Shown piece after piece: positions 14,785 to 15,244 of a stretch of DNA of 19,570 nt. The position numbers and the translations under genes are program-made. Where the stretch lies: the IMG/VR virus record IMGVR_UViG_2541047862_000007; one strand, 5' to 3'. The notes beneath the pieces were generated by a model. It saw only the letters and a program-made list of their open reading frames with translations. It did no database searches and was not told where the DNA came from. The stretch is from a virus. Taxonomy: Duplodnaviria; Heunggongvirae; Uroviricota; Caudoviricetes. Positions within the stretch are counted from its first letter, which is position 1. Every line of letters begins with the position of its first letter.

Positions 14785-14989
14785 AGCTACCTCGATACGC
14801 TTTCTATCGTTGGTGGTTAGACGCCCTGCATGTGTTGCGAGCACTGCGGGGCGTTGCTTAATTTGAGCAATGCAACCCAAACTGTGCGCACAGATTAAAA
14901 TCATGTGTGCGCACATGTCAATACTTAACTTCTCACTTTTTTTGCTGTATTGTGTGCGCCCATCAAATCCATTTAAGTGAGGTGTACCA
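14785..14989. promoter_or_regulatory. Divergent control region with palindromic operator-like sites (core TGTGCGCACA)
   Basis: Perfect palindrome CTGTGCGCACAG at about 14882-14893, TGTGCGCACA at about 14907-14916, half-site TGTGCGC at about 14953-14959; lies between the minus-strand replication operon and the plus-strand Arc-like gene. Confidence 0.55.
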
Positions 14990-15187
14990 ATGTCTAGCGG
15001 AAACACAAACAACAAATCAGCAAAGAAAAATATTCGATTCCCGCACGAGCTTATAGATGGGATTGATGCCAGTGTTGAACAAGAAAAATTAACTAATCCT
15101 AGTGCTAATTTTTCCGCATGGGTCTTAGATGCCTGTGGACGCAAATTAAAATATGAACAGCGCCGGAAGGCCAAAGAGCAGGAGTAA
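14990..15187 (+). CDS. Arc/Mnt-family ribbon-helix-helix transcriptional regulator, 65 aa
   Basis: GAGG Shine-Dalgarno 7 nt upstream of the ATG; NIRFPHELIDGIDASVEQ...SANFSAWVLDA matches the Arc-type strand-helix-helix pattern (N-L-R-W-P-x-E-[LV]-[LI]-D). Confidence 0.65.
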   Translation: MSSGNTNNKSAKKNIRFPHELIDGIDASVEQEKLTNPSANFSAWVLDACGRKLKYEQRRKAKEQE

Positions 15188-15244
15188 CCATCACCAGCGC
15201 CGTGGTGCGGTGAACTGTGGCGCACAGGGTTACAGGTATCTACG

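Follow-up and report, generated by a model that had tools for sequence, protein, structure and literature searches.

The virus record IMGVR_UViG_2541047862_000007 (Caudoviricetes) is a DNA stretch of 19,570 nucleotides, which we analysed as a whole and call the window. It is part of an Escherichia coli chromosomal island inserted at a tRNA-Gly gene adjoining actS. Here, we focus on its control region (around positions 14785–15244), where a plus-strand gene for a small protein of the YlcI/YnfO (DUF3950) family faces a minus-strand replication operon. Three short palindromic sites, two divergent promoters and a putative antisense RNA lie between the ylcI-like gene and the first gene of that operon, and a long minus-strand frame without stop codons runs across all of them. 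By comparing this arrangement with related loci, we consider whether it forms a compact immunity region, that is, a candidate repressor gene with its own operators and a second, RNA-based layer of control.

Probable operator sites and predicted divergent promoters

Three copies of a palindrome precede the ylcI-like gene. The perfect 12-bp palindrome reported in the original prediction, CTGTGCGCACAG, is indeed found at 14882–14893, and its 10-bp core, TGTGCGCACA, at 14883–14892 forms the first site (O1). The second core is likewise an exact copy (O2, 14906–14915), although the start-to-start spacing is 23 bp and not the 24 bp given before. What had been described as a half-site next to the ribosome-binding site of the gene is actually a full-length copy, TGTGCGCCCA (O3, 14953–14962). 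It matches the core at 9/10 positions, begins 47 bp beyond O2 and lies 17 nt upstream of the ylcI Shine–Dalgarno sequence GAGG (14979–14982), on a -10-like hexamer. A near-copy after the stop codon does exist (CTGTGGCGCACAG, 15215–15227), but it has a 1-nt insertion and is found only in the window's own lineage. Since it is absent from four loci that share the operator (L007, L008, L009 and L029), we reject this fourth site as a conserved operator, and it is probably non-functional as one. In the same four loci, O3 is an exact TGTGCGCACA.

Beyond O1–O3, the 19.6-kb window has no further copy of TGTGCGCACA with at most one mismatch. By chance, only about 0.02–0.04 exact copies of a 10-mer are expected in 19.6 kb, and an identical 10-bp palindrome pair within 100 bp arose in one of 300 simulated windows (first-order Markov versions of the window). 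Allowing up to one mismatch, the count (three against 1.14 expected) is weak on its own, but all three matches fall within 80 bp. The strongest evidence that the sites are real is the conserved three-site layout across 38 other loci, as discussed below. A 20-nt stretch inside ylcI (15133–15152) is 80% identical to O1 and its flank, and is probably due to chance or a remnant of duplication. Sites for LexA, CRP and similar host regulators were rejected because their spacing does not fit and the sites vary among elements.

The sites are interleaved with predicted promoter elements. The leftward promoter (14894–14921, minus strand), the analogue of promoter PLE of satellite phage P4, is read as a perfect -35 element TTGACA (14921–14916), a 16-bp spacer and a -10 element TTTAAT (14899–14894). 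O2 lies in the spacer between the two hexamers and O1 just downstream of the -10, over the predicted start. Repressor sites classically occupy such positions, within the spacer of a promoter and across its start. Among 40 distinct loci, no block of the region is more conserved than the leftward -35 (TCAA on the plus strand), and AT-rich hexamers 16–18 bp from it fall in the gap between O1 and O2. The rightward ylcI promoter (14925–14953, plus strand) would consist of a -35-like TTAACT (14925–14930), a 17-bp spacer and a -10 element TATTGT (14948–14953). O3 begins at the last base of this hexamer and covers the predicted start. In most of the 40 loci, a hexamer TATAGT, TATTGT, TATGGT or TATACT stands right before O3; this is nevertheless the weakest of the three promoter assignments made here.

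A YlcI/YnfO protein with a ribbon–helix–helix pattern

The ylcI-like gene (14990–15187, plus strand) encodes a protein of 65 aa, which we consider a candidate immunity repressor. It matches the NCBIfam model of the YlcI/YnfO family (NF041551) with 59 bits (cut-off 30) and Pfam PF13132 (DUF3950) with 28.3 bits (cut-off 25), and all 41 aligned homologues match PF13132. Its PHROG assignment is PHROG 949, 'unknown function', and no function was assigned to the YlcI/YnfO family in the literature searched. An AlphaFold2 model based on 41 homologues (predicted local distance difference test, or pLDDT, 75.5) displays an extended N-terminus followed by two helices, which corresponds to a strand–helix–helix topology within about 45 residues. 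The proteins that this structure model matches are almost exclusively of the ribbon–helix–helix type. A Foldseek comparison of the model with the PDB gave no match, and sequence and profile searches of PDB sequences returned nothing significant.

Established ribbon–helix–helix (RHH) families of Pfam were reached only below their thresholds, namely HicB_lk in nine of the 41 homologues (best E 0.0021) and, for a single homologue in each case, Arc, NikA-like, CopG_antitoxin and RHH_1. Aligning the family profile to Arc with hhalign paired AKKNIRFPHELIDGIDA with PQFNLRWPREVLDLVRK, at a probability of only 4.8%. In this register, residues 12, 14 and 16 fall on Q9, N11 and R13, the base-contacting residues of Arc, and NIRFP is set against NLRWP. 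The predicted DNA-reading strand is formed by residues ~11–17 (AKKNIRF). On the model, an RHH fold is a reasonable assignment, while the likeness to Arc is one of fold and register only and does not make the protein a member of the Arc family proper. Of the earlier description of the gene as Arc/Mnt-like, the fold and the register stand; the Pfam thresholds for Arc and other RHH families are not reached, and the family is YlcI/YnfO.

The family comprises 115 homologues, including proteins of lambda and Stx phages. The lambda homologue is an unannotated gene at 48142–48303 (minus strand) of J02459 (L067), about 200 bp from the right cohesive end. It is 43% identical and has the strand TTRNIRFP. 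It is oriented opposite to the late genes and is therefore presumably antisense to the late transcript. Stx phages carry the same gene. Upstream of the lambda gene, no obvious triple repeat was seen by eye.

Operator and protein vary together

Relatives of the protein led to 38 further loci (one genome per species; 39 with the window) from Serratia, Klebsiella, Rahnella, Pectobacterium, Xenorhabdus, Proteus, Morganella, Gilliamella, Orbus, a Pasteurellaceae strain and others, which together cover Enterobacterales, Orbales and Pasteurellaceae. Their layout is constant: a site, 23 bp, a second site abutting the leftward -35 and, in most loci, a third site 42–53 bp further on. The site at the O1 position, 23 bp from O2, is kept in 37 of the 39 loci. 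All sites share a TG-N6-CA frame, with a central hexamer that varies from element to element (e.g. TGTGCGCACA, TGCATATACA, TGTTTAAACA, TGTGAACCCA, TGTACCCCCA and TGTCCGCACA). In the class that pairs the strand xYKGI with TGTTTAAACA (L011, L017, L021, L022 and L035), a fourth operator lies directly after the leftward -35 in the downstream direction, and the spacer before the ylcI start is longer. Decayed copies also occur. In L029 (Erwinia tracheiphila), ylcI is frameshifted in a poly-A run, and L036 (Symbiopectobacterium) has lost O1 and the ylcI start with the RNA element intact.

The variation of the hexamer follows the protein. O1 and O2 of one locus are identical at 5.29 of the six central bases. 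Between loci, the value is 4.75 of six if the four residues before the invariant RFP match, and 2.68 of six if they differ. A Mantel test, with sites compared in both orientations, links the similarity of operators to the five residues preceding RFP (r=0.65, p<=2e-4), whereas the remainder of the protein (r=0.08, partial -0.04) and the leader DNA adjoining O1 (r=0.03) show no correlation with it. Nor does operator similarity follow the neighbouring genes. Rahnella loci that share the window's operator have primases only 30–31% identical to the window's, loci with primases 62–65% identical use different operators, and the AlpA-like protein and Icd mismatch the operator class just as the primase does. 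The relation also holds in the opposite direction. A search of viral contigs with the operator pair only gave 20 hits, and in 18 of the 20 the readable adjacent open reading frame (ORF) was a YlcI with the strand xKK[N/G/Y]IRFP.

Exchange can be seen at closer range in E. coli islands, where the leader and the C-terminal tail of the protein (…RRQRRKAKEQE) are kept and the operators are exchanged together with its N-terminal two-thirds. By analogy, such joint exchange is the behaviour of temperate-phage immunity regions. The palindromes are very probably operators of the YlcI-like RHH protein, whose specificity the covariation would tie to residues of the N-terminal strand, as is typical of RHH proteins. 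Given this covariation and the RHH fold, we read the protein as an operator-specific repressor. The claim that the RHH protein acts through these sites thus gains comparative support, with the operator covarying with the N-terminal strand residues and with nothing else tested.

A putative antisense RNA

Between O1 and the first leftward gene, we infer a putative plus-strand RNA of ~80 nt (14785–14866, with predicted ends), antisense to the leftward ribosome-binding site. It would fold into stem-loop 1 (14793–14809) and a terminator hairpin (14821–14854), followed by a T-rich tail (14855–14866). This candidate cis-antisense RNA is complementary to the leftward mRNA in its 5' untranslated region and its Shine–Dalgarno sequence, and would extend roughly as far as the start codon. 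Its predicted promoter, an extended -10 element TGgTATGAT (14769–14777, plus strand), lies inside the first codons of the leftward gene. A TAnnnT hexamer is found 21–22 nt before stem-loop 1 in 30/30 distinct loci, against 18% expected in a 16-nt window, and it is kept although the overlapping codons encode differing N-termini.

The folding is supported by compensatory changes. With RNAalifold, the plus-strand element reaches -23.8 kcal/mol; for the hairpin region, the values are -16.7 kcal/mol on the plus and -4.7 kcal/mol on the minus strand. Overall, 97% of cells pair, 14 of the 19 pairs have compensatory double changes, none of 500 shuffles reaches the observed covariation, and slid controls also fall far short. 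By helix, pairing amounts to 96–100% on the plus strand versus 69–97% on the minus strand, a better fit that results from G–U pairs. Only on the plus strand does a T-rich tail follow the terminator hairpin. One group of loci has CCUC in the loop of stem-loop 1, complementary to the Shine–Dalgarno sequence in front of the first leftward gene; in the window's group, this motif abuts the stem. With a covariance model, 18 of the 20 sources searched, including loci outside the training set and a capsid-forming island, yield a single copy each, next to ylcI. EcCIMP1 and lambda yield none.

Rfam contains nothing credible for 14550–15300, the best match being an R1162-like antisense RNA on the wrong strand (18 bits, E 1.6). 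A c4/CI-type identity was rejected; the window has no match to the C4 family. Many E. coli genomes (e.g. O157:H7 strains) match only window positions 14808–14872, i.e. the terminator hairpin, where nothing is annotated; such matches could be leftovers or forms of the RNA that lack ylcI. The RNA resembles FinP in its size of ~80 nt, its two stem-loops and its target (a 5' untranslated region with the ribosome-binding site). A link of the RNA to the island's ProQ/FinO-family gene is not obligatory: such a gene is present in three of the five cassette-bearing E. coli islands examined, and any partnership would therefore be optional.

The Icd-like gene and an overlapping bridge frame

The first gene from the leftward promoter encodes an Icd-like protein of 67 aa (14581–14784, minus strand; NF033153, 68.6 bits; also annotated as such in RefSeq). 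Its start is at 14784 rather than at 14785–14787, where it had been placed. The protein is a homologue of the C-terminus of P4 Eta/Kil. In P4, an ORF at 8168–8812 overlaps the end of vis and matches NF033153 with 73 bits at its own end. PHROG 6196 and PHROG 1743 label the Icd-like family 'transcriptional repressor'. This label most likely stems from an obsolete 'cI gene product' annotation of P4 (NC_001609, 8168–8584); the real immunity factor of P4 is an RNA.

The same frame extends far upstream of the Icd-like start. The resulting bridge ORF (14581–15618, minus strand) resembles eta and begins with an ATG at 15618–15616, 8 nt downstream of a Shine–Dalgarno sequence GGAGG. The start overlaps the last codons of the upstream BRO-N gene (stop at 15613–15611), and the junction reads GGAGGgtgaaagcaATGtgTAA. 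From there, the frame stays free of stops through the antisense of a second small ORF and of ylcI, the operators, the promoters and the RNA gene, and ends as the Icd-like protein. In the program-made ORF list, it appears as a 396-aa minus-strand ORF across the whole region. Hence the region lies between the minus-strand operon and the plus-strand gene, as first described, but it is not strictly intergenic. The original list of parts was incomplete as well, for it missed both the antisense RNA and this overlapping frame.

The open frame is a recurrent feature. In phase with the first leftward ATG, there are 329 stop-free codons upstream in the window. Over 30 distinct loci, the median open run is 232 codons in phase versus 4 and 4 in the other minus-strand frames, and it is at least 130 codons in 20 of the 30. 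In most loci, the start overlaps or abuts the stop of the upstream gene, with a Shine–Dalgarno sequence; outside the window, the overlap reads ATGA, TAATG or GTGA. Only the C-terminus of the bridge ORF matches a protein family. Its N-terminal part matches none and, judged by eye, looks antisense-like in composition.

As in P4, then, a long ORF is coupled to an upstream alpA-type region, has a nested Icd/Kil end and is followed by replication genes. According to PMC10111431 (citing Forti et al. 1999), eta of P4 contains an internal constitutive promoter, the immunity RNA CI and its target seqA. In the same source, Kil is a truncated nested product made from the internal promoter, and it is the translation of eta, rather than any activity of its product, that prevents termination. 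Rfam finds both C4 and isrK in P4, inside the P4 ORF. In the window, neither was found at the Rfam gathering score, nor were they listed in a search of 14550–15300 at E<=10. To judge from the sequences, the cassette stands in place of the CI/seqA immunity RNAs of P4.

Proposed circuit and alternative explanations

We read the region as the immunity region of a P4-related satellite of the phage-inducible chromosomal island (PICI) type, with an RHH repressor and its operators, an antisense RNA and a stop-free overlapping frame; we give this interpretation a probability of about 0.72. In this circuit, dimers of YlcI would bind the three 10-bp TG-N6-CA operators via the N-terminal strand. Occupancy of O1 and O2 would shut the strong leftward promoter (TTGACA-16-TTTAAT) and thereby silence the Icd-like/DUF4222/primase operon, and binding to the weaker O3, on the -10 of ylcI, would result in negative autoregulation. 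Leftward transcripts that escape repression would be met by the antisense RNA. Its pairing with their 5' untranslated region and ribosome-binding site would block translation, probably followed by polarity on downstream genes including the primase.

The bridge frame would provide the way out of repression. When a helper phage switches on the upstream alpA/antA/bro operon, ribosomes translating the bridge frame could carry transcription across the cassette to the replication genes, and convergent transcription would also lower the expression of ylcI. The sole terminators between the two units act on the plus strand, so read-through on the minus strand would be unhindered by them. The replication genes are probably also reachable by translated read-through from the alpA/antA/bro operon, as far as can be judged from the layout.

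Two functional claims of the original prediction fit well with this circuit. Repression of the replication operon by the RHH protein agrees, on comparative grounds, with O1 and O2 covering the leftward core promoter. Autoregulation, which had been called probable, is suggested by the position of O3 on the -10 of ylcI's own promoter; this evidence is also comparative, and we would say that the YlcI-like protein probably autoregulates. The term 'master switch of the element', on the other hand, goes further than the data and is unproven. For Gram-negative PICIs, the activator that has been documented is AlpA (PMC6092414, PMC11773190), EcCIMP1 lacks the cassette, and the replication genes are probably within reach of read-through from the alpA/antA/bro operon.

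Several points weigh against our interpretation. Co-inheritance could inflate the correlation between strand and operator, for the strand codons lie 100–150 bp from the operators and both may travel in one recombination block. The absent correlation with sequence on either side makes such inflation less likely. Four of the operator cores in the Mantel test were placed by hand. N, G and Y at residue 14 all occur with TGTGCGCACA, and residue 14 is therefore not the sole determinant of specificity. The rightward promoter is weak (8/12), and a consensus promoter scanner passed no promoter in the region; the promoters were therefore assigned by eye and by conservation. In the case of the leftward promoter, the scanner missed it because it demands an A at -10 position 2. 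Finally, ten of the 30 loci have no long in-phase frame, and two of these have one in another frame.

The repeats could instead be bound by another protein, e.g. a host factor, the AlpA-like or the Icd-like protein, or the primase acting on origin iterons. The repressor label that PHROGs attaches to the Icd-like family would fit such an explanation; 10-bp palindromes are typical of helix-turn-helix dimers as well, and short repeats occur in satellite origins (those of P4 are annotated). Yet operator class follows the identity of neither the primase, the AlpA-like protein nor Icd, several loci with the same operator have no detectable Icd-like homologue, and the PHROG label most likely goes back to the P4 annotation discussed above. 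The sites also differ between elements in the same host species, which excludes a single host factor, and they are located on promoter elements rather than beside the 3' end of the replication gene. Binding by another protein is thus improbable, and its iteron or origin version was rejected because primase identity mismatches operator class. A still smaller chance must be given to the idea that the RHH protein is an antitoxin paired with the next 65-aa ORF, with sites that merely autoregulate the pair. A second small ORF does follow ylcI in the window and in some E. coli variants. However, it has no relative in any of the 38 loci. In 16 of the 39, no ORF of 40 aa or more comes after ylcI, and in the others this position is taken by unrelated ORFs. 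Moreover, two of the three sites lie on the divergent promoter of the replication operon, not on that of ylcI. A type II toxin–antitoxin module was rejected, since a conserved adjacent partner gene was not found.

The other two alternatives concern the minus strand. The long frame might encode a genuine folded protein, with ylcI, the operators and the RNA as by-products. In its favour, most loci do have an open frame with coupling to the gene upstream, and the Prokaryotic Genome Annotation Pipeline sometimes annotates the long form (e.g. an 'Icd-like' coding sequence of 1413 nt in L045). We find this barely credible. YlcI is a conserved family that extends to lambda and Stx phages, the frame's N-terminal part matches no family and has an antisense-like look, and the P4 precedent (as described in PMC10111431) gives weight to translation of eta rather than to the activity of its product. 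With regard to the RNA only, the hairpins might act in the leader of the minus-strand mRNA, as a stabiliser or by sequestering the ribosome-binding site, with no antisense RNA made. Stem-loop 1 is nearly neutral on this question, pairing at 100% and 96.7% on the two strands, and it contains or abuts the Shine–Dalgarno sequence of the first gene. The terminator and outer helix, by contrast, are 96% paired on the plus strand and only 80% and 69% paired on the minus strand (80 G–U cells). The folding energy of the hairpin region strongly favours the plus strand, the T-rich tail exists on that strand only, and the -10-like hexamer keeps its distance in every locus. A role confined to the leader is therefore unlikely, and an antisense RNA remains our preferred explanation for these hairpins.

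Comparison with known control regions

P4 is the closest parallel. The order common to both elements is integrase, alpA-type gene, upstream-coupled long ORF and primase operon. Both also have a promoter within the long ORF and a nested short product with the same Icd-like domain (NF033153). In both, the control point is just upstream of the replication genes, and translation of the long ORF is proposed to permit read-through (PMC10111431). The immunity factor differs. In P4, it is a processed RNA of the same strand (CI; Rfam C4) that acts on seqA (isrK-like), whereas the window has a candidate protein repressor gene on the opposite strand, its probable operators on the internal promoter and a putative cis-antisense RNA.

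The other parallels are likenesses of regulatory logic. The immI region of P22 has two RHH repressors (Arc and Mnt), overlapping divergent promoters, the sar antisense RNA, a single 21-bp operator and an antirepressor gene as its target. The window is alike in its candidate small RHH repressor, its closely spaced divergent promoters and a putative small antisense RNA in the control region. It differs in having one RHH protein instead of two, a replication/Icd operon as the target instead of an antirepressor gene, and three separate 10-bp sites at distances of 23 and 47 bp instead of one 21-bp operator. In the copy control of plasmid pMV158, the RHH repressor CopG is combined with the antisense RNAII, and copG is co-transcribed with repB. 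Here too, an RHH repressor would act on a replication promoter, and a short, terminator-ended antisense RNA would target the first gene at its leader and ribosome-binding site. In the window, however, the candidate repressor gene is transcribed divergently and lies antisense within another ORF, and the element is a satellite, not a plasmid; the likeness is one of logic.

The immI regions of P1 and P7 (c4 RNA, icd, ant) rely on c4, a processed RNA that is encoded on the same strand and acts in trans. They resemble the circuit proposed for the window in that an RNA occludes the ribosome-binding site of an icd-type first gene and the lost translation leads to polarity downstream; they differ in that the window's RNA is cis-antisense and has no C4-family match. 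Stl proteins are larger than YlcI, of the helix-turn-helix type, and co-directional with int, whereas in the window int and alpA are co-directional with the replication operon. The Stl/Rpr systems of Gram-positive PICIs (PMC6092414) are similar in having a repressor divergent from the excision/replication operon and located between the integrase and replication modules. Stl is relieved by the binding of a helper-phage protein (PMC6092414).

The island and its other genes

In gene content, the window corresponds to the type of Gram-negative PICI that PMC6092414 and PMC11773190 describe. The integrase, alpA and primase genes share one orientation, there is no full set of virion genes, and the integration site is specific. 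Related ylcI modules sit in islands of like layout. All of the following genes are on the minus strand and are given from right to left. The integrase (18356–19570) is followed by a gene for a 267-aa protein of unassigned function, the AlpA-type helix-turn-helix protein (17037–17234) and proteins with AntA and BRO-N domains. An int-alpA RNA motif (Rfam RF02996; 46.9 bits, gathering score 35.8) lies at 18244–18311, also on the minus strand, just downstream of the gene for the 267-aa protein and with the integrase gene further downstream. Beyond the control region, the rest of the controlled operon (11903–14588) encodes an 85-aa hypothetical protein, a DUF4222 protein and a DUF927 primase-helicase in frames that overlap or abut.

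Past the primase come SSB, a ProQ/FinO-family protein, a frameshifted PerC gene, three large genes and an IS110 transposase. The ProQ/FinO-family RNA chaperone is encoded at 10733–11230. The cargo region (2319–9666) consists of three large co-directional genes (843, 686 and 925 aa), plus a 104-aa gene at 2005–2319. Neither Pfam nor PADLOC gave a match for these four genes, and the position and size of the cargo genes suggest an undescribed anti-phage or accessory system. The IS110-family transposase (DEDD_Tnp_IS110 and Transposase_20; 1–1197) forms the left end of the window. In the closest complete genome (L001), a different small gene is annotated in that interval, so the left edge of the window may vary between strains.

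Downstream of ylcI, a second small ORF (15245–15442, plus strand; 65 aa, PHROG 21027, function unassigned) lies outside the conserved module and could share a transcript with ylcI. The two proteins show no detectable similarity. Nevertheless, both ORFs have 65 codons, share 17 nt near their starts (15012–15028 and 15252–15268) and end in AKEQE; these shared stretches are probably due to chance or remnants of duplication. Two terminator-like hairpins with T tails at 15533–15580, on the plus strand only, would end the ylcI transcript and would not stop minus-strand read-through.

Distribution and significance

In E. coli, the 451-bp control region has at least a partial match in about one-fifth of complete genomes, with only 69 genomes covering most of it. 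Across Enterobacterales, the cassette was found in classical, capsid-forming and P4-related satellites. One capsid-forming example is a 16.5-kb relative (LR881103, L066; 'Escherichia phage vB_KppS-Ant') with genes for capsid, portal, terminase, integrase and primase. It was deposited as an 'induced prophage', which is only suggestive of helper induction. It carries the ylcI cassette at 8994–9185 (minus strand) and the antisense RNA at 9286–9383; ylcI is unannotated there, and a 'hypothetical protein' called on the opposite strand is probably the bridge ORF. In EcCIMP1, a proven and experimentally studied PICI, neither the ylcI cassette nor the antisense RNA was found. As the cassette and the antisense RNA occupy the place of P4's RNA-based immunity, they suggest a concrete candidate for the missing repressor of many Gram-negative satellites.

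RHH repressors, antisense control of replication genes and the eta/kil logic of P4 are already known. In the literature searched, four things appear to be undescribed: a repressor role for the YlcI/YnfO family, its exchangeable classes of operator specificity, a repressor cassette antisense inside a translated bridge frame, and the wide spread of the cassette in PICIs, capsid-forming PICIs and their relatives. The arrangement is also unusually dense in regulation: one stop-free frame has, on its opposite strand, the genes for the candidate repressor and the RNA together with two promoters and the operators. For P4-like elements, it would mean that a protein repressor can take the place of an RNA in the immunity slot.

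A broader idea, which we consider rather doubtful as a whole, is that YlcI cassettes are the repressor layer of many Gram-negative and capsid-forming PICIs, with swappable classes acting as immunity groups, lambdoid homologues that cross-talk with them, and a collision device built into the locus. If this were true, phage YlcI/YnfO homologues might form mixed dimers that inactivate the satellite repressor (i.e. induction) or, alternatively, bind the satellite operators (i.e. anti-satellite repression). The antisense position within a translated bridge ORF would then act as a collision switch between two opposing transcription units. YlcI/YnfO genes of lambdoid phages are also located opposite to late genes, next to cos. 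Altogether, the reading offered here would provide a testable function for DUF3950/YlcI/YnfO, a family present in cryptic prophages of E. coli K-12, in lambda and in Stx phages, and its natural strand/operator variants could serve as orthogonal repressor–operator pairs.

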